Source: Deltaproteobacteria bacterium
GTDB lineage: Bacteria > Myxococcota_A > Polyangia > HGW-17 > SLPX01
Reading direction: 5' to 3'
DNA length: 64,000 bases
NCBI GenBank assembly: GCA_021162935.1
Contig: JAGGXR010000131.1
Location: 514 to 64,513, forward strand
The position numbers and the translations under genes were made by a program. Numbering within the stretch: position 1 is the first letter of the stretch; each line of letters opens with the position of its first letter. Below the pieces are notes generated by a model. That model was not told the DNA's origin. It was given only the letters and a program-made list of their open reading frames with translations, and searched no databases. Shown here piece by piece: positions 2,004 to 63,328 of the stretch.

Positions 2004-2679
2004 GCGCATCGCCCGTCCACGACAACCGGGATTCGATCCGCACCGCCATTTTTTTGTTATGCGTTTTCTTCAAATTCCATGGCCCAACTATTATTTTTTA
2101 CTGGTCTATCCGCCATTTTATACCTGCATTGGTCAAAATTGATTGGGCACAACTTATTATTCTGCTTAAGGGCAGATCCTCCAGCGATGGCCTTTTTTGC
2201 AAGTAAGATCAGTCAATTTCACCAGCCTAACCGAAGACAGATGATGCTAGTTATTAGATCCGTCGATTCCGTCGATGTCAAGGGGAAAACGGAAAAGCAC
2301 CTCATAACATCACGGTTGCTGTAGTTATCGATATTGTGCATCATCCGGAGGGAGAGTATGGCCAGAGTTCGCAGCCAGATGAAGGGGGTGCTGGCCAGAT
2401 TATACGAGGTTCTTGCGCCAAGTTCTCACGGGACAGGCACTTGGGCCTCGGTCGTCACGGCGAACCTGCTGGTAATGGCCCGACACGTGCTCACGTAGTC
2501 GCACGCATCTGCTCAGCGTGGACTCTCCCAGAAACCACCGGGACGAGGGCCGGGGCATGCGGAAATCCCGTCTACTGCCCGAATCGCGTGATTTCTTCGG
2601 TCGAGCAGGGATCGCGGCGCTGCTATCGCCAATCGGCAGCAGCGGCCGGCCCCGCTCAGGTCGCACAAAACCCCACTTC

Positions 2680-3034
2680 TGGGATGGGAACGAACTGCGA
2701 GCTGTGGAACCACGTCAAGCCAGCCCAGATCCTCGCCCTGGGGCGCAACCATTGGCGGGTAGATAACGACTGCTTCAACTCGCTGGACCTGCAGTGGCGC
2801 GAGGACTCTGGAATCTGGTGCAGAAAGGGCAACGCGGTCTGGGCTCTCGGACTGCTTCGGCTGATGGCCTACAACCTCGTGCACATGCTCCGGCTTTGGT
2901 GCCGCCGCCCGTGGCGCAAGACCCAGGACGGAGACTACGCGAAGCTGCTGATCTGGCGCTCACTCTTCAAGGCGATCATGCTGACCTTCGGGACGGCGCT
3001 CGACAGCCAACTGCCACCCTTGGCGGTCGATTGA
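2680..3034 (+). pseudogene. ISAs1-family transposase C-terminal remnant
   Basis: QILALGRNHWRVDNDCFNSLDLQWRED matches the ISAs1 HWxIEN...LD...ED motif; N-terminus missing. Confidence 0.7.
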
Positions 3035-24230: not shown

Positions 24231-26480
24231 CTACGGCTGGGTTCTTCGACGCTTCGTCGTCAAGAGGGTCACCAAAAGGAAGACAATCCAGACTGTAGAA
24301 GGTATCTCGCTGGCTGCGGACCTGCAATTGCAGCCGCCGGTGACATTGTCGTCGTTCGCTTCGTGCCCGGCGTCCTGGTTTCCTGGGCCGGCGTCGGCCC
24401 CGCCGTCGTCGGTCGGCGATCCGTCTGCAGAAGAACCTCCATCGGGCGTTACAGAACCGTCTCCGACCTGGATTGAAATGATCTCCGACAGCGTCTCATC
24501 ACCGTCGTCGTCCACAGCGCGAGCCTGGAGACTGTGTGACCCCGTTGCCAAACCCGACAGTTGCCACTCGTATGGAGCGATGTGTTCGATTTGACCGTCC
24601 TGCGTTCCATTCACGAGCAAATAGACGGCAGTGACCTCCCCGTCGGAGTCGCTTGCCAGGACATTGACGTAGATTTCCTGTCCGACTTCGAAGTCGGTAC
24701 CGTTGATCGGGTTTTCGATGCTCACCGCAGGGGATTCGTTGACGGCCTGCGTGGTCCTAAGGAGAAGGACCACGTCGGTCCCCTGCCAAGGCGATGTGAG
24801 ATCCCGCCACGAGCCTTCAGAAAGTTCGTCGCCCGTGCTGGATGTGCCGTCCGTGGGCCGGAACCAGAGCAGTGAGTAAGGGCCCTTGTCGAAGTCGGTG
24901 AGGTTGATTCTGAGTTGCGGTGTCTTGCCGGTATCCACGTCCGCATTCTTTCGGGTTTCCTCTTCGTTGGTTCCGTAGGCGGTGGAGATTCCCGTTCGTT
25001 CCCCTGCTCGAGCGTTCGGCACGTAGACGATGACTTCGTCGGTTCCTCGGCGGGCGCATTGGGGGCGGCTGGGACCGTCGTTGTACTCGGGCCCGGCAGC
25101 ATTGGTTTGCTCCGCCAGAACATCGGCATCCTCGAAGCGGGCAAGGTCGATGTGGTTGTCGGCCAGAAAGCTCCTGATATGTTCGATGTCGTCGAGACCG
25201 ACCATGCCGGAGGTCGAATACGGCACGATGTCGTCCCACCGGCCCGCATAGGTCGCCGATGCGCCGGACAGTAGGTAGGACCACATCAGACGTCGGTAGA
25301 AGTAGCGGGGGTGTGCCGGTGGATGGTAGGTCTCGTAGTAGTCTTCGGTGTTGTAAACGTGCTTGGAAAATTGCCTGTACGAATACCAGTCCAGGAGATC
25401 GCAGGCAATGTCGTAGGCCGTGTAGCCGATGATGTAGGTGCTCCAGTCACCGTTGCAAAATGGATATTCGTAGTCTCTGCGGTGCCCGAAGGCCATGAGA
25501 TGCCCAAAAGGGTCGTTTTCGTGGAAGTAGGGGCCCACGTCCATGGCCAGAAACCAGTTGTCCGGGTCCTGCTGCTCGGAACGGACCATGGTGTCGTTTG
25601 TCACTTCCCAGAAAATGTTCGGGAAAGCGGCGAATCGGGCGATGATGGCGCGCTTGAGACGTTCTCTCTGTTGTGCGTCGTGGCCGGTGCTCCATGTGTC
25701 GTCACCCATGTTGGCGTCGGGAAACAGGATGAGCTGGACATAAACCCCTGGGTGTTTGTCGAGCATCCATTGCAAACGTTCGTCTGTGTGCCGGAAGTTC
25801 GTCAGGGAAACCCTCTCCTTGGGTCCCGACATGCCGCCCTCCCAGTAGAGGTTCCAGTCCCATTCACCCAGGAGCAAGCAGCGCAGCCCGTTGATGCCCA
25901 GGGCTGCGTCCTCCGTGACGTATTGCTGATAGTCGTCACTGATTGCGTCCATTTTGAACAACCGGTAGGCCGTATCGGCGATGTGCACGAAAGTCTCTCC
26001 CCGGTCGGTCATCCAGACATGGGGGTTCGTCTCATGGGCGCGAAGCATCCCGGGAAGGTTGGAAGCCGTGGCAGAAAAGCTGCCGTTGTGCCCGTCGAGG
26101 TCCGTGTTTTCTGAACTCGTCGAATTCCAGTACCACGTGCCGGTTTCAGTCACGTAGATTCGCGCCTTCCACGTGCCGTTGCCGTCATAGAAACAGCGCA
26201 CGGTCACCTCATTTGCGACACCGGAGGGCGGCGTGAACGTGACCGTACAGTCCGTGTCGAATGGATTGTCACTTCCTTCGTTTCCGGAAAGAGAAATCTC
26301 GTGCACGCCGAATCGGACGGCAGTATCGTCGTTGCGGGTGAAGTTCGCCGCCCGAGATGTCGAGGAAAACACAAACAAAGTCACAGAGCCGGTCAGAAGA
26401 AACAGCGCAGCAGCCCCGGGGCTGTGCAAGATAGATATTGACTGCGTTTTGCGTGACGATCGGTGGTGCGCTTTCATCAT
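24231..26480 (-). CDS. Secreted DUF5060/DUF4038 (apiosidase-like) protein with collagen-binding-like and Ig-like domains and MYXO-CTERM anchor
   Basis: NPFD...FYDGNGTWKAR; ADTAY; IARFAAFPNIFWEVTND; WFRPTDG; ASDSDGEV Ig-like domain; GGCNCRS...hydrophobic...KRRR. Confidence 0.75.
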   Translation of the reverse strand: MMKAHHRSSRKTQSISILHSPGAAALFLLTGSVTLFVFSSTSRAANFTRNDDTAVRFGVHEISLSGNEGSDNPFDTDCTVTFTPPSGVANEVTVRCFYDGNGTWKARIYVTETGTWYWNSTSSENTDLDGHNGSFSATASNLPGMLRAHETNPHVWMTDRGETFVHIADTAYRLFKMDAISDDYQQYVTEDAALGINGLRCLLLGEWDWNLYWEGGMSGPKERVSLTNFRHTDERLQWMLDKHPGVYVQLILFPDANMGDDTWSTGHDAQQRERLKRAIIARFAAFPNIFWEVTNDTMVRSEQQDPDNWFLAMDVGPYFHENDPFGHLMAFGHRRDYEYPFCNGDWSTYIIGYTAYDIACDLLDWYSYRQFSKHVYNTEDYYETYHPPAHPRYFYRRLMWSYLLSGASATYAGRWDDIVPYSTSGMVGLDDIEHIRSFLADNHIDLARFEDADVLAEQTNAAGPEYNDGPSRPQCARRGTDEVIVYVPNARAGERTGISTAYGTNEEETRKNADVDTGKTPQLRINLTDFDKGPYSLLWFRPTDGTSSTGDELSEGSWRDLTSPWQGTDVVLLLRTTQAVNESPAVSIENPINGTDFEVGQEIYVNVLASDSDGEVTAVYLLVNGTQDGQIEHIAPYEWQLSGLATGSHSLQARAVDDDGDETLSEIISIQVGDGSVTPDGGSSADGSPTDDGGADAGPGNQDAGHEANDDNVTGGCNCRSAASEIPSTVWIVFLLVTLLTTKRRRTQP

Positions 26481-42265: not shown

Positions 42266-44407
42266 TCACAGTTCATCATCCGAAGAACTCGACTTGGCCT
42301 TGCCATAGTTCTTCAGGAACCAACTCGCTTTCTTGTGCCACCGACTACTCGACGGCACCATCCTGAGCACCTGACGCCAATAGGACTTGGCTCTTCCCAA
42401 ATTCGAATCCCGAAGGATGTACCCCTTGTTGAAAATCCCCTGCGCTTTGGCGTCGAGTTGGCTCACGATCCGCTTCAAAGCTGCACTGTCGCCACCAGCT
42501 CTGCGGGCAATCCGGACCGCCTTGTAGGCCACCGAATACCGGCCACTCGAAAACGCACTGCCTGCCGCTGCTCTGGCCACCTTGCCCAACTTGGCCCGCA
42601 ACGTCCCACCAAAGGCGCCACGACTGATGGATCGATCGAGGGAAAGTGCGCGTTGATAGGCGTACATGGCGGAAATACTGTTCGTGTGCTGAGCCACCTC
42701 GGCTCGCTTCCAGGTCAGGCCGAATTGTTTGACCTTTTTCGCCTTGGCCAGGGTCTTGCGGGCCCTGGCCCCCCGTTGACCGGCAGCCACCCTTCTTAGC
42801 TCTGCGGCGGCGGCACTCCAATTCTTCGCTTTGTAGAAAGCCATGAATTGCTTGTACGAGCCTCCCATCGACGTTGAGTTCCCGCCGCTCCGCCGGCCCC
42901 TGGGCCGCTTGGTCGCGTGTCCAGAATCGGACCCACCGGAATTGCTGTCTGTCTGGGTCGCAACGCCACCATCCTGAATAGGTTTTGGAGTCCCACCTTG
43001 GCTCGATGGTTGCTGGGTTGCAACCTCAGGAGGCGGTTCAGGCCCACCGAACTCGTGCCACAGCACCAGAGCAGGCCGATATCCGGGACTCAACTTGAGG
43101 GCCAGTTTGATCTTCTTCATCACGAGGGGAACCAGCTTCTTGTCCTTGTCGGCCCCCAAGGCCTTCGCTTCAGCAAGGAGCGCATCCGCCCGCTTTTCCC
43201 GCGCCTTCTTGACGATCTTCTGAGCCGCCAAAAAATAATCGGTTTGCTTCCCGACCAACAGTGCCAAAGTTTCCGCACCAGGATAGTTGCCTTTGCCCAA
43301 CTCGACCGCAGCCCTGGCCAGATTGCTCTTTGCCTCGCGGTTCGAGCGAATCTGTTTGAGCCTGGTCTGGACGAATTGATTCTTGGAATCTTTGGCCGCG
43401 AGAAGCAAAAAGATCTTTTCAGCCTGGTCCCAGGCCTGCTTCTTCACGAGCTGCTTGCCCTTTTCGTAAAGCTGCTCCTGGGTCGGCCCTGCAGTGACAT
43501 GCACCACCTTCTTCTTCGTCTTCTTCCCGCGCAGCTTCCCAATCATCGCCATGGTGAGCAGCGCCAAAATGAGAGCCAAACCTCCAAATACCAGCACCTT
43601 CTTCAAGGTCGTATCCGTCAGACGCCCCACGGCGCCCATCAGTCCACCGGGCCCGGCAGCCACCGAACCGGTCTCTATACCCACAGAGGCCATGGGTGCC
43701 ATGGCCCCCGACAGGGGGCCCACCCGCTCCGTGGGAGGAATACTGGGGAAGCCCGAACCCTGAGCGCTGGGGCGAGCAGCGGGCGCTGGTCGTCGCGCCG
43801 GGGCTGGTCGAGCAGCGGGCGCTGGTCGTCGCGCCGGGGCTGGTCGAACAGCGGGCGCCGGTCGTGGCGCCGGGGCGACACGGGCCGCAGGGCCTGGTCG
43901 AGCCGCGGAAATGGCTCGTGGTCGCGGGGCCGGTCGAGGCGCTGGTTCAGGGGAAACCGGCAGGCCATCGAACGGTTCCGTTGGCCTGGTATCACTGCCG
44001 CCTCGGGCCAGATCCCCTCCTGCGGCCGGCCAACGAAAAACGAGCCGTGTCTTGCCGGCCTGAATGAGATCACCGTCCAGGAGTTGATGGGTCTGAACCC
44101 GTACCCCGTTCACCTTGGTTCCGTTGCCGCTGCCCTGGTCGATGAGCTGGTACCCCTGACCATCGAATTCGATGGCCAGGTGCCTCCGACTCACCGCCAA
44201 ATCGGCCAGAACGAAGTCACACTGGGCCCCCCGACCGATCATGACGGCAGACTCCGGCAGATCGAACGTACGGCCCTGGTCATTGCCCTCGACCACGTCG
44301 AGAACGGGTGGATCGCTCACAGGACCACCCAATGGCATGGATTCCAACGTGTCACGGGGCGGCGGTGGCGGCATGGCTCCATATTGATTTGTACGTTTCG
44401 CAGACAT
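42266..44407 (-). CDS. FHA-domain membrane protein with periplasmic TPR-like helices
   Basis: IGR, VSRRH, SGNGT.VNG FHA motifs; Pro/Ala linker; TM; helical C-terminus. Confidence 0.85.
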   Translation of the reverse strand: MSAKRTNQYGAMPPPPPRDTLESMPLGGPVSDPPVLDVVEGNDQGRTFDLPESAVMIGRGAQCDFVLADLAVSRRHLAIEFDGQGYQLIDQGSGNGTKVNGVRVQTHQLLDGDLIQAGKTRLVFRWPAAGGDLARGGSDTRPTEPFDGLPVSPEPAPRPAPRPRAISAARPGPAARVAPAPRPAPAVRPAPARRPAPAARPAPARRPAPAARPSAQGSGFPSIPPTERVGPLSGAMAPMASVGIETGSVAAGPGGLMGAVGRLTDTTLKKVLVFGGLALILALLTMAMIGKLRGKKTKKKVVHVTAGPTQEQLYEKGKQLVKKQAWDQAEKIFLLLAAKDSKNQFVQTRLKQIRSNREAKSNLARAAVELGKGNYPGAETLALLVGKQTDYFLAAQKIVKKAREKRADALLAEAKALGADKDKKLVPLVMKKIKLALKLSPGYRPALVLWHEFGGPEPPPEVATQQPSSQGGTPKPIQDGGVATQTDSNSGGSDSGHATKRPRGRRSGGNSTSMGGSYKQFMAFYKAKNWSAAAAELRRVAAGQRGARARKTLAKAKKVKQFGLTWKRAEVAQHTNSISAMYAYQRALSLDRSISRGAFGGTLRAKLGKVARAAAGSAFSSGRYSVAYKAVRIARRAGGDSAALKRIVSQLDAKAQGIFNKGYILRDSNLGRAKSYWRQVLRMVPSSSRWHKKASWFLKNYGKAKSSSSDDEL
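43773..43880. repeat. 36-bp (2x18) coding repeat, PAPARRPAPAAR linker
   Basis: CGAGCAGCGGGCGCTGGTCGTCGCGCCGGGGCTGGT x~3. Confidence 0.8.
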
Positions 44408-46619: not shown

Positions 46620-46635
46620 GGGCACGGGGATTGCA
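46620..46635 (+). promoter_or_regulatory. Putative sigma54 -24/-12 promoter
   Basis: GGGCACGGGGATTGCA (GG-N10-GC) 16 nt upstream of the ATG at 46652; it implies a very short leader. Confidence 0.4.
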
Positions 46636-57562: not shown

Positions 57563-58081
57563 CTACCGATCGATGCCGTGTTTGTGCCGAATTTGTTCCA
57601 TGACCTTCTTGTACTCCACGTCCCAAGCCACCGAGCCTTCTTCCAAATTCTGGATACGCTCGCGCACTTCTCGATCGAGTTCCTCGTCCAGCATCATGTG
57701 TTTCCGAAAGATCTCCTTCATCTTCTTTCGCATCACGTGGTCGTCCGCATAGATCTCGTCGACGAACTTGGACTGATGCATGAAAAAATCCAGAATCTGG
57801 TTACACATCCACGAAATGCCATCCTCCCGCATGGCAAACCCTTCTTCTTCGGCGACCCCTCTCTTGATCTTGCCGAACTGCGCATAGGGCAGCCCCCGCT
57901 TCTCCATGATGTCCTTTGCCTTCTCGGCAATCTGCCGCTCCCTCTTGAGGTACTCGTTCAAAATGGCGGCCACATCCAGTTCGACCTCAGCGGGATTCGA
58001 AGTGTCGATGTCGTGGTCATCGACGAGATTTTTGACGATTTCCGCCGAGATGACGGACACCTTTCCAGCATACAGTTTCAT
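57563..58081 (-). CDS. DUF507 family protein
   Basis: MKLY..K, EI.ADD..., LD.EVR.RI.NL.EGS..W..EY.K. Confidence 0.75.
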   Translation of the reverse strand: MKLYAGKVSVISAEIVKNLVDDHDIDTSNPAEVELDVAAILNEYLKRERQIAEKAKDIMEKRGLPYAQFGKIKRGVAEEEGFAMREDGISWMCNQILDFFMHQSKFVDEIYADDHVMRKKMKEIFRKHMMLDEELDREVRERIQNLEEGSVAWDVEYKKVMEQIRHKHGIDR

Positions 58082-58172
58082 CCTGCCATTCCTTTTCAAT
58101 CAGGCGACCCGCCCGTCCGTTCCGAGGTATCGGCCGAGCCGACGGGCATCATTCGAGCCACGAACAGACGGG

Positions 58173-58202
58173 AGTATAGAAATGCTTTGGCACGACTGTC
58201 AA
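58173..58202 (-). promoter_or_regulatory. sigma70 promoter for DUF507 (and possibly pgi)
   Basis: Minus strand TTGACA-N18-TATACT. Confidence 0.65.
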
Positions 58203-58288: not shown

Positions 58289-59677
58289 ATGTCCGAGTCG
58301 GCACCACCACAATCGCCACGGGTCCTCGTCGTCGATGACGAAAAGAACATTCGTCGAACCTTGAAGATGGTCCTGGAAGCTGAAGGCTACGACGTGTGGA
58401 CCGCCGAATCGGCAGAGCAGGCCCTGACCCAGATCGAGGCAGACCGACCGGACTGCGTGGTGATGGACGTGAAACTCCCCAAGATGGACGGAGTGGCCGC
58501 ACTCGCCAAGATCCGCGAACAATGGAATGAAGACGTGGTCCCCATTATCATGATCTCGGGCCATGCCTCGATGTCCGACGCCGTCCGCGCCACGAAACTC
58601 GGCGCCTTCGACTTCTTCGAAAAACCCCTCGACCGAAACCGCATCCTCGTGTCTATCCGCAACGCGGTTCAACACGTTCAGATGGCGCAGGAGGTCCAGG
58701 AACTCCGCAGCAGCCTTGGTGAACGATTCGAACTCGTCGGCCAAAGCCCTCCCATGTTGCAACTGTTCCGAACCATCGAAAAGGTCGCCCCGACCAAAGG
58801 TCGCGTCCTGATCACGGGCGAAAGCGGTACCGGCAAGGAACTCGTTGCACGTGCCATACATCGGAACAGCGATCTCGCCGACCGACCATTCGTCAAGGTC
58901 AACTGTGCGGCCATCTCACCCGAATTGATCGAAAGCGAGCTGTTCGGCCATGAACGCGGGGCGTTCACCGGGGCGGTGGCGCGTCGACGCGGCCTGTTCG
59001 AGGTGGCGAACGGAGGAACCATTTTCCTCGATGAAGTAGGAGACATGAGCCTGTCCGCCCAGGCCAAGGTCCTTCGCGTCCTTCAAACGGGTGAATTCGT
59101 GCGGGTGGGCGGCGAGCGGGTCGTGCGGGTCGATGTCCGGGTCTTGGCCGCCACGAACAAGGATCTCCAAGAAGCGATTCAGGCAAACCTTTTTCGCGAG
59201 GACCTCTACTTCCGACTGAACGTGATCCCAATCCGGACACCAGCCCTCAGGGAACACCGAACCGACATCCCTCTGCTCGTGATCCGATTCGTCGAGGAAT
59301 TCTGCCGTCAAAATGGATTCCGAACCAAGACGGTCGAGCCGAAAGCCATGGACGGCCTGACCGCCTATCCATGGCCGGGCAACGTCCGAGAATTGAAAAA
59401 CGTCATCGAGCGCGTCGTGATTCTAAGCGACGAAACCATCACAGTCGACGATCTGCCGGATTTCCTGGCCGATCGAACCATAGGCCGCGTCAATCTGGAC
59501 CACTATACGGACAGGACGCTACGGGAGTTCCGCGAGGAAATGGAGCGGGCCTTCGTCCTACTGAAATTAAACGAATTCGAGTGGAACATCTCACGGACAG
59601 CCACGGCCCTGGGCGTGGAGCGTACGAACCTCCACAAAAAGATCAAAGCCCTCGGTCTCAAACGGAATCAGCAATAA
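58289..59677 (+). CDS. sigma54-dependent response regulator (NtrC/NtrX-like)
   Basis: Receiver VVDD...D...SG...KP; GESGTGKE, GAFTGA, LDE, WPGNVRELKN, Fis HTH. Confidence 0.95.
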   Translation: MSESAPPQSPRVLVVDDEKNIRRTLKMVLEAEGYDVWTAESAEQALTQIEADRPDCVVMDVKLPKMDGVAALAKIREQWNEDVVPIIMISGHASMSDAVRATKLGAFDFFEKPLDRNRILVSIRNAVQHVQMAQEVQELRSSLGERFELVGQSPPMLQLFRTIEKVAPTKGRVLITGESGTGKELVARAIHRNSDLADRPFVKVNCAAISPELIESELFGHERGAFTGAVARRRGLFEVANGGTIFLDEVGDMSLSAQAKVLRVLQTGEFVRVGGERVVRVDVRVLAATNKDLQEAIQANLFREDLYFRLNVIPIRTPALREHRTDIPLLVIRFVEEFCRQNGFRTKTVEPKAMDGLTAYPWPGNVRELKNVIERVVILSDETITVDDLPDFLADRTIGRVNLDHYTDRTLREFREEMERAFVLLKLNEFEWNISRTATALGVERTNLHKKIKALGLKRNQQ

Positions 59678-59727: not shown

Positions 59728-61044
59728 ATGAAAGTCACCATCGCCGACCTGAAACAGGCCATCACAAAAACTGCGCCGACCGACCCCGCCACGGCTCTCA
59801 AACTCGGATGGCGACTCGTCGATGCCGTGCCCCATGACATCGAAGGCCGTCTGTGGATCGCCGACCTCCTGGTCCAGCTGGGAGCCCCCCAGGCAGCGGG
59901 CCCCGTCTATGAGGCAATCGCCCAATATGGTATCCGGGGCGGCCACCCACTCGTCAGCCTCGTGGCAGCCAAGGTACTCGAAGACAGCGACCGAGATGTT
60001 TCCGACTTCTATCGCACCATCGCACGCTTCTACGGAGCTGGCTCCTCCAAGGTGTCCGCCCATGGACAACGCACGTCTCCCGAACATCCCGACACCCTGG
60101 TCCAGGCTCCTGATCTCGAAACCGAAATTTCTCTGCCCTCGTTGATCGCCGGGGCTGCCCGCGCTGCCGCGAATCTGGATGGGATCGAGGACTACCCAGA
60201 AACTCTGCTCAAAATCCCGTTGCTCTCCGAGTTGCCCGAACCGAGCTTCGTCAAAGTCTGTGAGACTATCCGCTGCATCCGCCTACCCGCCGGCTCCATG
60301 GTGATCAGGGAAGGGGAAATGGGCAGGTCCTTCTTCTGGCTCGCCCGGGGATCCGTGTCCGTATACAAGACCGACATGCGGGGGCGCCAGACCGAACTCG
60401 CCCAACTCGGCGAGGGTGCTTTGTTCGGCGAGATGGCCCTCATCCAGGCCGCGCCGCGATCGGCATCCGTCCAGACACGAAGCGATGCCGACCTGCTCGA
60501 AGTGGACAGCGCCGCCCTGTCCACCATGGCCGAACACCTCGACGCCGTTGCGCTGGCTCTGGACCGGTTCGCCCGGGAACGGCTCCTGAACAACCTCCTG
60601 GCAACCTCGGCTCTGTTCGTGCCCTTCAGCCGCAAACAGCGCATGGACCTCCTGCGCCGGTTCACCGGCCACGAAGTCGCCCCTGGCACCATCATCATCA
60701 ATGAAGGAGACGAGGGCCGCGGCCTTTATGTCGTACTGTCTGGTGAGGTTGAAATCACCAAGGAACAGGAAGGGGAACAGGTTCCCCTTGCCACCCTCAA
60801 GGCAGGAGACATCTTCGGAGAAATCGCACTCCTCAAGGGCTTTCCCGCAACGGCCACGGTCACGGCCACACGTCGCTCCACGATCCTTTTCTTGGACCGC
60901 ACCTATTTCAAACGACTCGTGAATGCCCTGCCGGAAATCCGAGCCATGTTCGAAAACATGACCGAAGAGCGCCTGCGCGACACCCAGATGGTCCTTGCCG
61001 ATGACATGATCATCGAAGCCAGTGACGACCTGGTGCTCATCTGA
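59728..61044 (+). CDS. Protein with two cyclic-nucleotide-binding domains
   Basis: IREGE.G...FGEMAL....RSASV and INEGDEG...FGEIAL....ATATV; TPR-like N-terminus; RBS GAGGAG. Confidence 0.88.
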   Translation: MKVTIADLKQAITKTAPTDPATALKLGWRLVDAVPHDIEGRLWIADLLVQLGAPQAAGPVYEAIAQYGIRGGHPLVSLVAAKVLEDSDRDVSDFYRTIARFYGAGSSKVSAHGQRTSPEHPDTLVQAPDLETEISLPSLIAGAARAAANLDGIEDYPETLLKIPLLSELPEPSFVKVCETIRCIRLPAGSMVIREGEMGRSFFWLARGSVSVYKTDMRGRQTELAQLGEGALFGEMALIQAAPRSASVQTRSDADLLEVDSAALSTMAEHLDAVALALDRFARERLLNNLLATSALFVPFSRKQRMDLLRRFTGHEVAPGTIIINEGDEGRGLYVVLSGEVEITKEQEGEQVPLATLKAGDIFGEIALLKGFPATATVTATRRSTILFLDRTYFKRLVNALPEIRAMFENMTEERLRDTQMVLADDMIIEASDDLVLI

Positions 61045-61137
61045 AAAGACCACGCCAAGAAGCCCCATCGAATCTGCGATATCTCCAATCGGTGGCCAAG
61101 GCCACCCAAGAGACAATCACATTGAAAACTCGTGGCC

Positions 61138-61171
61138 AAAAATAACGAAGGTCCCGGCTACCGGGACCTTC
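61138..61171 (-). terminator. Rho-independent terminator on the minus strand
   Basis: GAAGGTCCCGG-TAG-CCGGGACCTTC followed by GTTATTTTT on minus. Confidence 0.75.
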
Positions 61172-61564
61172 ACCAACACCTCGAATCACTGGAAGCTAGG
61201 CCTACCGCAACAAAAGCAAATTCCATCTACTCCTAACGAAACGAAACCGCAACGAGAAAGAAAACGAAAAATAAGGCTAACGAAACTCATGCTACCAAAC
61301 AAAGGTTCAATCGCACAAAAAAAACAAAAACGCTCAGGATACGAAACGGTAACTGCCAACCCCGGCTCCGGGCCGGAGATCCTATGCAAAGCATGCCCCG
61401 GGCGGCCGAAACCGGGCCGGGGCGTATCGTTAAACAGCGAGAACCAGCCCGCTGTCAGGGAGGAGGAGGAGGTCGTGGGTCGCCGAAATCTTGGAGCCAG
61501 GCCGTCTCAATCGAACGTAGTCGCAACGTATGGTCATATCGAAATACCCTCAAACCTCCTACTC
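61140..61564 (-). ncRNA. Candidate sigma54-dependent structured RNA (may encode a 35-aa peptide)
   Basis: Bounded by a -24/-12 promoter and a terminator; three GC hairpins, a CCUCCUCCUCCUCCC tract, and a U-rich segment with repeated UUCGU. Confidence 0.45.
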
Positions 61565-61574
61565 TCTGCTGTAA

Positions 61575-61590
61575 TGCAACCCCAATGCCA
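61575..61590 (-). promoter_or_regulatory. sigma54 -24/-12 promoter
   Basis: Minus strand TGGCATTGGGGTTGCA, a close match to TGGCAC-N5-TTGCA. Confidence 0.65.
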
Positions 61591-61774
61591 TCTTTCCATT
61601 CCACCTGTAACCATCGAAAATCACGAGAGATCCTCGAAAAACAGAGCTGTCTTGGCCACGAATCCAGTTGAAAAACCATGACATCCATGTCATCGTGTAT
61701 CAGCAATTTGAAAATGTTTTCACCTGTGCGGCGCGACCGAACCCCTCGGCGCAAACCAAGGATCCTTGAAAACC

Positions 61775-63328
61775 ATGGCTGGAATCACCCTTGTCATCAA
61801 TGTGGACGGACCTCAACGGCGGGTTGCGGTCGTGGAAAACAGCAACCTCCTGGAACTCTACATCGAAAGCCCGGAGGAACGCGGGATCGTGGGCCACATC
61901 TACAAGGGTCGCGTCGTCCGCGTCCTGCCTGGAATGCAGGCCGCCTTCGTGGACATCGGCCTGGATCGAACTGCTTTTTTGTATGTCGCCGACATCTGGT
62001 CGCCGGACATCACCCCTTTTCTGGACGACCCGGATTGCAGTGGCGAAGGACCATTACAAGAGGACCAAGCCGCTGCAAAACCCAGCATCGAGGATCTGGT
62101 CACAGAAGGCCAGGAGCTCGTGGTCCAGGTAGCCAAGGAACCGCTCGGAACCAAAGGCGCCCGGGTCACGACCCACGTCACGCTGCCGGGCAGACACGTG
62201 GTGTTCATGCCCACGGTCACCCACGTCGGCGTGTCGCGGCGCATCACCGACGAACAGGAACGCCGTCGCCTCAAGGACGTGGTAGAAGCGTTGAGGCGGG
62301 ACGAAAGCACTGGGTACATCATCCGTACCGTGGCCGAAGAACAGAGTTCCGCCAAACTCGCCGCAGACATGAATTTCTTAACGAGGCTGTGGGAGCAAAT
62401 CCAACACAAGTCCCAAAAAACCCCGGCACCGGCCAAACTCCATGCAGATCTGGATCTCGTGCTGCGATCCATCCGAGATCTCCTTGGAAACGATCTCGAT
62501 CGATGCGTGGTGGACAGCCTGGCCGAATACGATCGCATCAAAGATTTCGTCAGCACCTTCATGCCTCGATTCACCAACAACATCGACGTCTATGAAGGAA
62601 ACGAACCCATCTTCGATGTCTATGGATTGGAAACCCAACTCAATCGCGCCCTCGAACGCCGCGTCTGGCTCAAGAGCGGTGGATACCTGGTGATCGATCA
62701 GACCGAGGCTCTGACCGCCATCGACGTGAACACCGGTCGATTCGTGGGCAGGAGAAACCTCGAAGAGACCATCACGCAAACCAACCTGGAAGCCTGTCAC
62801 GAAATCGCCGTGCAGGTGCGACTCCGCAACATCGGCGGGATTATCGTGATCGACTTCATCGACATGATGAAGGATGCCAATCGCCAGAAAGTTTGGAAAA
62901 CCCTCGAAGAAGCCCTGGCCTCGGACCGCGTCCGCTGCCACATCAGCAAGATTTCCAACCTCGGCCTGGTGGAAATGACCAGAAAACGGACGAGGGAGAG
63001 TCTCATCCACAGCCTGACCGAACCCTGTCCATACTGCGAAGGACGAGGCTTCCTCAAATCTGCGGATACGATCTGCAACGAAATCCTTCGCGGCGTCCGA
63101 AAGGAAAGCACATACGAATCTGGCAACACCATCATGGTGGAATGCCACCCGGATGTGGCAGAAATCCTGACTCAAATCTACCACCAGGAGGCGGACGAGC
63201 TGGAAAAACGACTCGGAAAGGAAATCATCGTTCGCCCCGACCCGCGCCGACACCGAGAGGAATTCGAAATCCGTGGCACGGATCACCATGGAGGCCCATC
63301 TCCGCAACAGGGAAACTCGACACCATGA
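61775..63328 (+). CDS. rng: Rne/Rng family ribonuclease (RNase G-like)
   Basis: IYKGRV..VLPGMQAAFVDIG, QVAKEP.GTKGA, IDVNTG, RNIGGIIVIDFIDM, GLVEMTRKR, CPYCEG.G. Confidence 0.93.
   Translation: MAGITLVINVDGPQRRVAVVENSNLLELYIESPEERGIVGHIYKGRVVRVLPGMQAAFVDIGLDRTAFLYVADIWSPDITPFLDDPDCSGEGPLQEDQAAAKPSIEDLVTEGQELVVQVAKEPLGTKGARVTTHVTLPGRHVVFMPTVTHVGVSRRITDEQERRRLKDVVEALRRDESTGYIIRTVAEEQSSAKLAADMNFLTRLWEQIQHKSQKTPAPAKLHADLDLVLRSIRDLLGNDLDRCVVDSLAEYDRIKDFVSTFMPRFTNNIDVYEGNEPIFDVYGLETQLNRALERRVWLKSGGYLVIDQTEALTAIDVNTGRFVGRRNLEETITQTNLEACHEIAVQVRLRNIGGIIVIDFIDMMKDANRQKVWKTLEEALASDRVRCHISKISNLGLVEMTRKRTRESLIHSLTEPCPYCEGRGFLKSADTICNEILRGVRKESTYESGNTIMVECHPDVAEILTQIYHQEADELEKRLGKEIIVRPDPRRHREEFEIRGTDHHGGPSPQQGNSTP

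Follow-up and report, generated by a model that had tools for sequence, protein, structure and literature searches.

The window analyzed here, a 64,000-nucleotide (nt) stretch of contig JAGGXR010000131.1 from the Deltaproteobacteria bacterium assembly GCA_021162935.1, contains a 730-bp gap (61045-61774) whose minus strand carries a predicted small RNA (sRNA) gene. On one side of the gap lies a plus-strand gene for a protein with two cyclic nucleoside monophosphate (cNMP)-binding domains by Pfam (59728-61044, its start probably at 59728), which is convergent with the sRNA. On the other side lies rng (61775-63328, plus strand), a member of the RNase E/G family by Pfam and ortholog search, which is divergent from it. 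Upstream of the cNMP gene, a candidate activator gene (58289-59677, plus strand) encodes Response_reg, Sigma54_activat and HTH_8 domains (Pfam). The predicted sRNA itself, delimited by promoter geometry at one end and a terminator at the other, spans ~427 nt (61138-61564). Judged from the DNA of this locus and its relatives, the gap probably carries a real, conserved, stand-alone non-coding RNA gene dependent on sigma-54. A first-pass annotation of this DNA had proposed an undescribed ~425-nt sigma-54-driven regulatory RNA here; conservation, compensatory changes, the lack of a conserved open reading frame (ORF) and the lack of an Rfam family bear out the RNA, whereas the accompanying guesses about its mechanism are not established. 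All the elements it listed were found in their places on the minus strand, and rng is divergent as it said; the activator gene, placed there two genes away, is in fact one gene away. Four families are distinguished in the order to which the organism belongs: f1 (with rng loci in the window's own genome, G000, and in G001), its sister f3 (with rng loci in G004, G006, G008, G010 and G012), f4 and f2. The carriers of the RNA are Myxococcales-labelled, uncultured metagenome-assembled genomes from two of these families.

Transcription is predicted to begin at a sigma-54 (-24/-12) promoter, TGGCATTGGGGTTGCA, at 61575-61590 (minus strand, as for all parts of the RNA given below), which has a -24 GG and a -12 GC at the correct spacing and is kept in relatives. 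The predicted start at ~61564 is reasonable because the GC of the -12 element sits at 61577-61576, and both promoter and start agree in position and geometry with those first proposed. Two other one-mismatch matches to the sigma-54 consensus lie in the window, TGGCTCGATGGTTGCT at 42999-43014 and GGGCACGGGGATTGCA at 46620-46635, both on the plus strand. A palindrome of the form TGACA-N4-TGTCA (TGACATGGATGTCA, 61679-61692), 88 nt ahead of the -24 element and 83 nt ahead of the rng start codon, is likely the upstream activating sequence of a sigma-54 activator; the exact palindrome has only five copies in the 5.1-Mb genome. Between palindrome and promoter, a block of conserved alignment columns (GATTTTCGATGG, 61611-61622, minus strand; GATTTCAAG in f3) may be an IHF-like bending site. 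The genome encodes both rpoN (217 bits) and an activator that combines receiver, AAA+ and HTH_8 domains.

The predicted RNA is a short non-coding transcript with its own terminator, built around a closing stem and a conserved 3' end. In the stem, the 5' strand of helix P1, GGAGGUU (61553-61559), pairs with GACCUCC (61468-61474), and just inside it helix P1' pairs GGG (61547-61549) with CCC (61477-61479), all placed by alignment A5. The loop that these helices enclose carries two ACGUU motifs (61514-61529), of which ACGU is invariant in 7/7 sequences (columns A34, C35, G36 and T37 of the alignment). P1 leaves unpaired the f1-specific tail UCCUCCUCCC (61458-61467), an anti-Shine-Dalgarno-like run within a 29-nt block, GACCTCCTCCTCCTCCCTGACAGCGGGCT, that is 100% identical between the window and G001; the tail is absent from f3. 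Three hairpins follow: P2 (61434-61455, ACAGCGGG...CUCGCUGU), found after P1 in 7/7 sequences; the GC-rich P3 (61395-61423), conserved in G001, where the inner stem GGCC/GGCC of the window becomes GGUC/GACC; and P4 (61360-61378, CUCCGGC...GCCGGGG), for which G001 has CCUCGC...GCGGGG at the equivalent place. A U-rich region (~61198-61358, 47% U), an insertion relative to f3, contains (U/A)YGUU repeats that are mostly UUCGUU, with TTCGTT in the DNA at 61235, 61240, 61263 and 61279; GUUGC occurs three times in the RNA. The conserved 3' motif (61173-61196) consists of GCUUCC (61191-61196), 8 nt, and GAGGUGUUGG (61173-61182); here, immediately ahead of the terminator, GAGGTGTTGG is invariant in 6/6 complete sequences. 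The intrinsic terminator (61138-61171, GAAGGTCCCGG-TAG-CCGGGACCTTC) has an 11-bp GC-rich stem at 61147-61171 and a U run to ~61138; counting G-T, it was scored at 15 pairs, of which 8 are G-C. The first-pass annotation had already picked out the three hairpins (with P4 at 61362-61376), the U-rich stretch with repeated UUCGU(U) and the 11-bp-stem terminator with its U tail, and all of them are present.

Conservation and covariation of the RNA

Orthologs of rng were found in 21 of the 23 genomes of the order, and their upstream regions were scanned. The promoter, as TGGCAY-N5-TTGCA, is invariant in all seven rng loci of f1 and f3, where it lies 148-205 nt from rng and is oriented away from it, and occurs in 0/14 rng loci of f4 and f2. 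At the equivalent place in six of the seven syntenic loci stands an exact TGACA-N4-TGTCA (G006 has CGACA), 88-100 nt from the promoter, a distance that fits the ~80-150 nt of an activator site whose binding is predicted. A common cassette lies between rng and the cNMP gene in these seven genomes. It runs from the palindrome through ~90-100 nt, the promoter, 13-16 nt, GGAGGYUG.AGGG, the ACGU loop, CCC..RRCCUCC and a hairpin to a variable A/U-rich middle, GCUUCC, 6-8 nt, GAGGUGUUGG (in 6/6 complete sequences), a GC-rich terminator and a U run. In 5/5 loci where the contig reaches that far, the cNMP gene lies downstream in convergent orientation, so that its synteny with the sRNA is kept wherever it can be followed; in f4 and f2 it was not found within 1.5 kb of rng. 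Of the promoter, hairpins and terminator, on whose conservation the first-pass annotation had staked its proposal, the promoter and terminator are conserved in the seven syntenic loci, as are the palindrome, the closing stem and the 3' motif.

The RNAs differ in length, from 260-272 nt in f3 to 426 nt in the window and 456 nt in G001, and the extra length in f1 consists of the CCUCCUCCUCCC tail, P3 and P4, and the U-rich repeat region. When the gap was compared by BLAST with 61 relatives, one real match emerged, G001, which belongs to another genus of the same family; two further matches, with an expectation value (E) of ~0.005, were chance matches of 21 and 34 nt. The order in G001 is rng, gap, cNMP gene and activator, then the DUF507 and PGI genes. 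The two gaps align end to end with 77% column identity, and the G001 promoter is retained as TGGCATTGGCCTTGCA. P3 and the terminator differ between the two through paired changes. The U-rich part is hardly alignable, yet UUCGUU is kept in both. Scanning with exact patterns recovered only the G001 record from the genome collection; in the metagenome collection it gave two unrelated contigs, one low-complexity and one coding, and no new homologs.

The pattern of changes also bears on whether the transcript is translated. We consider it scarcely credible that it is an mRNA for a small protein, encoded by a 35-codon ORF (61430-61537, minus strand) or by a plus-strand ORF, or else a divergent copy of the Myxococcus RNA Pxr, to which we return below. 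Such ORFs do exist, and an AGGAGG stands 17 nt ahead of the ATG. The 35-codon ORF is not conserved, however: its start codon is absent in G001, and the two f1 sequences are separated by indels of 10, 1, 2, 23 and 5 nt, none a multiple of three, with frame-breaking ones inside the ORF. No ORF of at least 80 aa is present in the G001 gap on either strand, that opposite to the sRNA included, and Pfam gave no match for the ORFs of the gap, in agreement with the initial view that no convincing long ORF occupies it. The GGAGG behind the promoter can be read in the same light. A class-wide search of 401 genomes for a sigma-54 promoter followed by GGAGGYT matched 14 of them, the seven carriers and seven others (reversed control, 2). 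In six of the seven non-carriers an ATG stands no more than 10 nt past GGAGG and starts a frame of at least 128 aa (one runs off its contig), and the seventh has neither a start codon nor the family motif; these seven were set aside as ordinary mRNA promoters or nothing, not family members. In the seven carriers no start codon follows GGAGG, which is the 5' strand of P1.

Individual helices are supported by compensatory changes. Across the seven sequences of alignment A5, the ten pairs of P1 (GGAGGYU:RRCCUCC) and P1' (GGG:CCC) are paired in 69/69 cells, with double changes from U:A to C:G in G006 and from G:C to C:G in G001, where P1' reads CGG:CCG. Sliding the partner strand by 1-3 columns left 40-69% of the cells paired and gave no double changes, and 8 of 500 column shuffles were as good as P1/P1'. 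On the four complete f3 sequences, RNAalifold predicted P1, P1', P2, a small GCUUCC-GAGGUG hairpin and the terminator, with double changes in 6 of 36 pairs; in P2 of f3, three of the six pairs show them. In 6/6 sequences a terminator stem of 9-12 bp leads into a U run, and double changes occur at several positions of the stem. The region upstream of the rng orthologs, to which the first-pass annotation had pointed for covariation, holds compensatory changes in its stems. Because the GCUUCC/GAGGUG pairing is invariant, it is neither supported nor excluded by covariation. We noticed, in addition, that the 5' GGAGGU (61553-61559), ACCUCC (61468-61474) and the 3' GAGGUG (61173-61182) are mutually complementary or alike, and that RNAalifold run on both f1 sequences pairs ACCUC with the 3' GAGGU rather than with the 5' strand. 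Since conserved segments can pair in more than one way, an alternative long-range fold or mimicry of a Shine-Dalgarno duplex is possible.

Covariance models link the families through the 3' half of the RNA. A model of the 3' domain built from f3 alone found 61139-61202 on the minus strand as its sole match in the 64-kb window (43 bits, E 1.2e-8), and the G001 copy as its sole match in the G001 locus (21.1 bits, E 0.0022). Homology of the 3' halves of f1 and f3 is shown independently by this recovery of both f1 copies. Rfam 15 placed the RNA in no known family, in line with its initial description as new: a search of the window to E 10 gave five matches at E 4.6-9.9, all far below their gathering scores, and a search of five relatives to E 1 gave no family, the best scores overall being 12.9-24.3 bits.

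This constraint on the RNA also helps to weigh a role of the locus in cis. The rng and sRNA promoters share a control region of 185 nt, and the RNA could be a by-product there, with activator binding and divergent sigma-54 transcription modulating the rng promoter, or with the hairpin serving as the 3' end of the cNMP mRNA. The palindrome does lie only 83 nt from the rng start codon, the order rng-RNA-cNMP holds at each locus whose contig extends far enough, and the terminator stands ~100 nt past the stop codon of the cNMP gene. Nevertheless, GAGGUGUUGG is invariant and P1 and P2 covary, all far from the promoter, and on the plus strand no U run follows the hairpin, so that we regard an exclusively local function as highly improbable.

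A proposed sigma-54 regulon and mode of action

The palindrome and promoter found at the RNA recur elsewhere in the genome. A palindrome with up to one mismatch, 50-160 nt upstream of a sigma-54-like site, was found at nine places, compared with ~1.5 expected by a rough hand estimate. Three of the nine are convincing by their spacing (89-102 nt) and extended likeness: the RNA itself, a site on contig C114, where TGACATGGATGTCC stands ahead of a Big_5 lipoprotein gene, and one on contig C90, where the unit precedes a gene for a secreted protein that has a beta-barrel-like C terminus and matches no Pfam family. A second exact palindrome with a sigma-54-like site, on contig C104, was taken as chance, as it lies inside the coding sequence of a signal peptide. 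In G001, the ortholog of the C90 gene (43% identity) is divergent from the activator gene and adjoins it, and carries GGACATTGATGTCATGG and TGGCACCAGCCTTGCT, 90 nt apart. This outer-membrane-like gene (G001:C23, L075 3028-3851) encodes a secreted protein of 224 aa that belongs to no Pfam family and has an aromatic residue at its C terminus; the promoter of the small beta-barrel outer-membrane-like gene is retained in the orthologs of G000 (contig C90) and G002. A stricter form of the palindrome-plus-promoter pattern matched nine places in 6 of the 23 genomes, all of them f1 or f3, and none in the reversed control. These are five RNA loci, the outer-membrane-like gene of G001, an outer-membrane-like and a lipoprotein gene of G002, and a lipoprotein gene of G010. 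The distribution suggests that the palindrome sites mark a small envelope-related sigma-54 regulon.

The G001 genome also offers a candidate for the protein that would bind them. Its ortholog of the window's activator (69% identity) lies beside this second palindrome-plus-promoter unit, and the palindrome is therefore presumably tied to the neighboring activator in f1. The activator gene of the window has its true start at the ATG at 58289; a 705-aa frame in the ORF list, from 57560, is over-extended and overlaps a DUF507 gene (57563-58084, minus strand, 124 bits). The latter has a near-perfect sigma-70 promoter of its own, TTGACA-N18-TATACT, at 58173-58202 on the minus strand.

We propose, with a probability of roughly 0.7, that the RNA is a sigma-54- and activator-dependent sRNA that acts in trans and forms the riboregulatory part of a small envelope-related regulon. 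The envelope assignment follows from the palindrome-plus-promoter unit that also precedes genes for outer-membrane-like proteins and lipoproteins, which makes this role the most likely one. In the proposed sequence of events, an NtrC-type activator, most likely the response regulator encoded at 58289-59677, would bind TGACATGGATGTCA ~90 nt upstream and open the -24/-12 promoter. The RNA would begin a few bases before the closing stem, GGAGGUU:GACCUCC plus GGG:CCC, enclosing the loop with the invariant ACGU, would continue through the hairpins and would end in the invariant single-stranded GCUUCC...GAGGUGUUGG ahead of the Rho-independent terminator. Its conserved unpaired parts, namely the ACGU loop, GCUUCC...GAGGUGUUGG and, in f1, the CCUCC run, may then act on mRNAs in trans. 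That this action takes the form of base pairing is a tentative suggestion, somewhat short of an even chance.

Several observations weigh against an sRNA of this kind. The promoter match is, by itself, at chance level in the window, where TGGCAC-N5-TTGCW with up to one mismatch occurs three times compared with 2.27 expected, and 37 of 100 shuffles reach three. Covariation is modest, with few events in seven related sequences. The whole 429-nt transcript is no more stable than dinucleotide shuffles (z -0.23), nor is the G001 version (z -0.10), and the initial description of the transcript as structured thus holds for individual helices and fails for the whole. A combined 5'-domain model, R1, found only the seven known loci in the 23 genomes (E 4e-18 to 1.5e-10, next best E at least 0.1) and matched 6/151 genomes of a class sample, all f1 or f3, and 0/145 others, but its matches are by construction its own training sequences. 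When the 5'-domain model was built from f3 alone, it missed the window RNA even with filters off: it reports nothing at 61468-61562 up to E 10, and its best match in the window, at 18 bits, lies elsewhere. For homology of the 5' half, the evidence is consequently that of synteny, the promoter, the palindrome and short motifs. The assignment of the activator is weak. An ortholog is present in 23/23 genomes (54-69% identity, paralogs at most 52%), including 15 of f4 and f2 in which the RNA was not found, and its phylogenetic profile is for that reason not discriminating; in f3, moreover, the ortholog is not near the RNA. A search for targets by the complement of GAGGUGUUGG gave 25 sites in the genome (~12 expected by a rough estimate), mostly in coding sequence and with no pattern. 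Lastly, no RNA sequencing runs containing the stretch are listed.

The U-rich repeats of family f1

The U-rich region invites a different view of the RNA, as a decoy or sponge in which many (U/A)CGUU copies titrate an RNA-binding protein or nuclease off mRNAs, much as CrcZ does with Hfq/Crc. The repeats themselves exceed expectation. UUCGUU occurs four times in the window RNA compared with 0.59 expected from dinucleotide shuffles (2/1000 shuffles reach four), and five times in the G001 RNA compared with 0.34 expected (0/1000 shuffles reach five), although the region hardly aligns between the two. Each f1 RNA has 9-11 copies of WYGUU, mostly UCGUU, spaced 11-16 nt; ACGU/ACGUU, the core of the repeat, is the family's invariant loop motif; and no TTCGTT cluster in the genome is denser than that in a 200-nt stretch of the window, which shares first place. 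Neither Hfq nor CsrA was found above cut-off in the 97%-complete genome (no match for Hfq; CsrA with only 22.9 bits, inside an 884-aa frame), so that another partner is conceivable.

The distribution of the repeats speaks against a sponge. The repeat region is missing in 5/5 f3 RNAs, which have 1-4 loose WYGUU matches each, and UUCGUU repeats, being confined to f1 and nearly absent from f3, are not the core function of the family. No candidate binding protein was found in searches that covered Hfq and CsrA, just one mRNA leader in the genome has tandem copies of the motif and its orthologs do not keep them, and a U-rich unit could have multiplied in tandem without selective effect. On balance we regard the sponge as unlikely for the RNA; the sponge raised in the first-pass annotation survives as an enrichment of UUCGUU in f1 and falls as the core of the family. 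A version restricted to f1, which we hold to be a shade less likely still, is that an ancestral ~265-nt sRNA was rebuilt there into a ~430-nt multi-site decoy sequestering an RNA-binding protein or nuclease, possibly the adjacent RNase G. As part of that scheme, ACGU/ACGUU would have been amplified to 9-11 copies and the exposed CCUCCUCCUCCC anti-Shine-Dalgarno run added. Cleavage by RNase E/G, the other mechanism offered in the first-pass annotation, is a conjecture drawn from the adjacency of rng.

The mRNA leader just mentioned lies in the window's own genome on contig C72 (~2460-2900, minus strand), where four tandem 18-mers, GGTGGTTTTCGTTACCTG, stand in the leader of a secreted Peptidase_S8/PKD gene. 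The 18-mer contains UUUUCGUUAC and shares the UUCGUU core with the sRNA, and the repeats follow a sigma-54-like site, TGGCCCGTGGATTGCT, itself preceded by three direct TGACA repeats. As a conserved motif site this subtilase leader was rejected: the leaders of its orthologs in G001, G010 and G004 have sigma-54-like sites and no repeats. Also among the three densest TTCGTT clusters in the genome is an imperfect, microsatellite-like intergenic tract, (TTCG/TTCGTCGA)n, on contig C35 (~25489-25560).

Assembled reads from other samples touch the same region. Contigs from four DNA runs supplied fragments identical to the window, along with one variant of a single base and a deletion of 1 nt in the terminator loop. 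In two other vent-metagenome runs, contigs are identical to the window from 61378 upward and unlike it below; this divergence, which sets in where the U-rich region starts, may reflect a fork in the assembly or variation between strains.

Relation to known small RNAs

Among known systems, Pxr of Myxococcus xanthus and its relatives shares several features with the sRNA. According to the reports on it, Pxr too is non-coding, has a predicted sigma-54 promoter and enhancer and several stem-loops, and lies near an NtrC-type response-regulator gene, as the f1 sRNA does, in a myxobacteria-labelled lineage (PMC5568312, PMC10217877). The resemblance of promoter and neighborhood (PMC5568312) is what favors a divergent Pxr copy, the second half of the alternative introduced with the ORFs. 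The same reports describe an RNA of 108 nt with three stem-loops, SL1-SL3, directly downstream of nla19 (PMC5568312, PMC10217877). By comparison, the sRNA is 427 nt long in the window (260-272 nt in f3, 260-456 nt overall) and lies between rng and the cNMP gene, convergent with the activator operon. Where Pxr directly follows nla19/pxrR, one gene intervenes in f1 and no activator is nearby in f3. No Rfam family was found at E up to 10 in the window or up to 1 in five relatives, and hence no match to a Pxr model, if Rfam holds one. Rfam and description together set the sRNA apart from Pxr, and the analogy without homology drawn in the first-pass annotation stands. In the literature on sigma-54 small RNAs in myxobacteria, the relevant reports among the matches listed concern Pxr.

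Two further RNAs resemble the sRNA in their setting. CrcZ and CrcY of Pseudomonas (PMC5113210) are likewise long, lie beside the gene of the activator that induces them (CbrB for CrcZ) and carry a short unpaired motif in several copies, and RNase processing is discussed for CrcZ as it is for the sRNA. CrcZ differs in its motif, AAnAAnAA, and in its partner, Hfq/Crc, whereas the motif of the sRNA is UUCGUU, with repeats in f1 only and no Hfq found in the genome (PMC5113210). In Desulfovibrio vulgaris, the sigma-54-type response regulator DVU0679 has as its mapped target an sRNA gene beside its own, Dv_sRNA2; the phylum and the binding motif are different, and DNA affinity purification-chip (DAP-chip), gel-shift and tiling-array support is given there (PMC3333781).

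In gamma-proteobacteria, the GlmY/GlmZ and Qrr genes have -24/-12 promoters, upstream activator sites and a dedicated two-component response regulator, and their RNAs depend on Hfq or RapZ. With these the sRNA shares no sequence or structure likeness as judged by Rfam. To our knowledge, only a few sRNAs depend on sigma-54 (Qrr, GlmY/Z, CrcZ/Y, Pxr and Dv_sRNA2), each of them the main output of a signaling pathway. Judged by sequence, size and context, the sRNA belongs to none of these.

The sRNA described here is apparently an undescribed family of a familiar kind of bacterial regulator. It changes no concept; rather, it contributes a family with clear limits, in which an enhancer site and a promoter are defined, helices have covariation behind them and a segment of 10 nt is invariant. 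Its source is a group of uncultured, vent-associated bacteria labelled Myxococcales in which riboregulation is almost unstudied and Hfq and CsrA were not found in our searches. If the f1 RNAs were indeed decoys, sponge and partner would form a new pair controlled by sigma-54, in an organism in which neither Hfq nor CsrA was detected. The pair of ~265-nt and ~430-nt forms provides a natural before-and-after case of an sRNA gaining a repeat module, and the co-regulated set of an outer-membrane-like protein and lipoproteins gives a testable idea of its physiological role.

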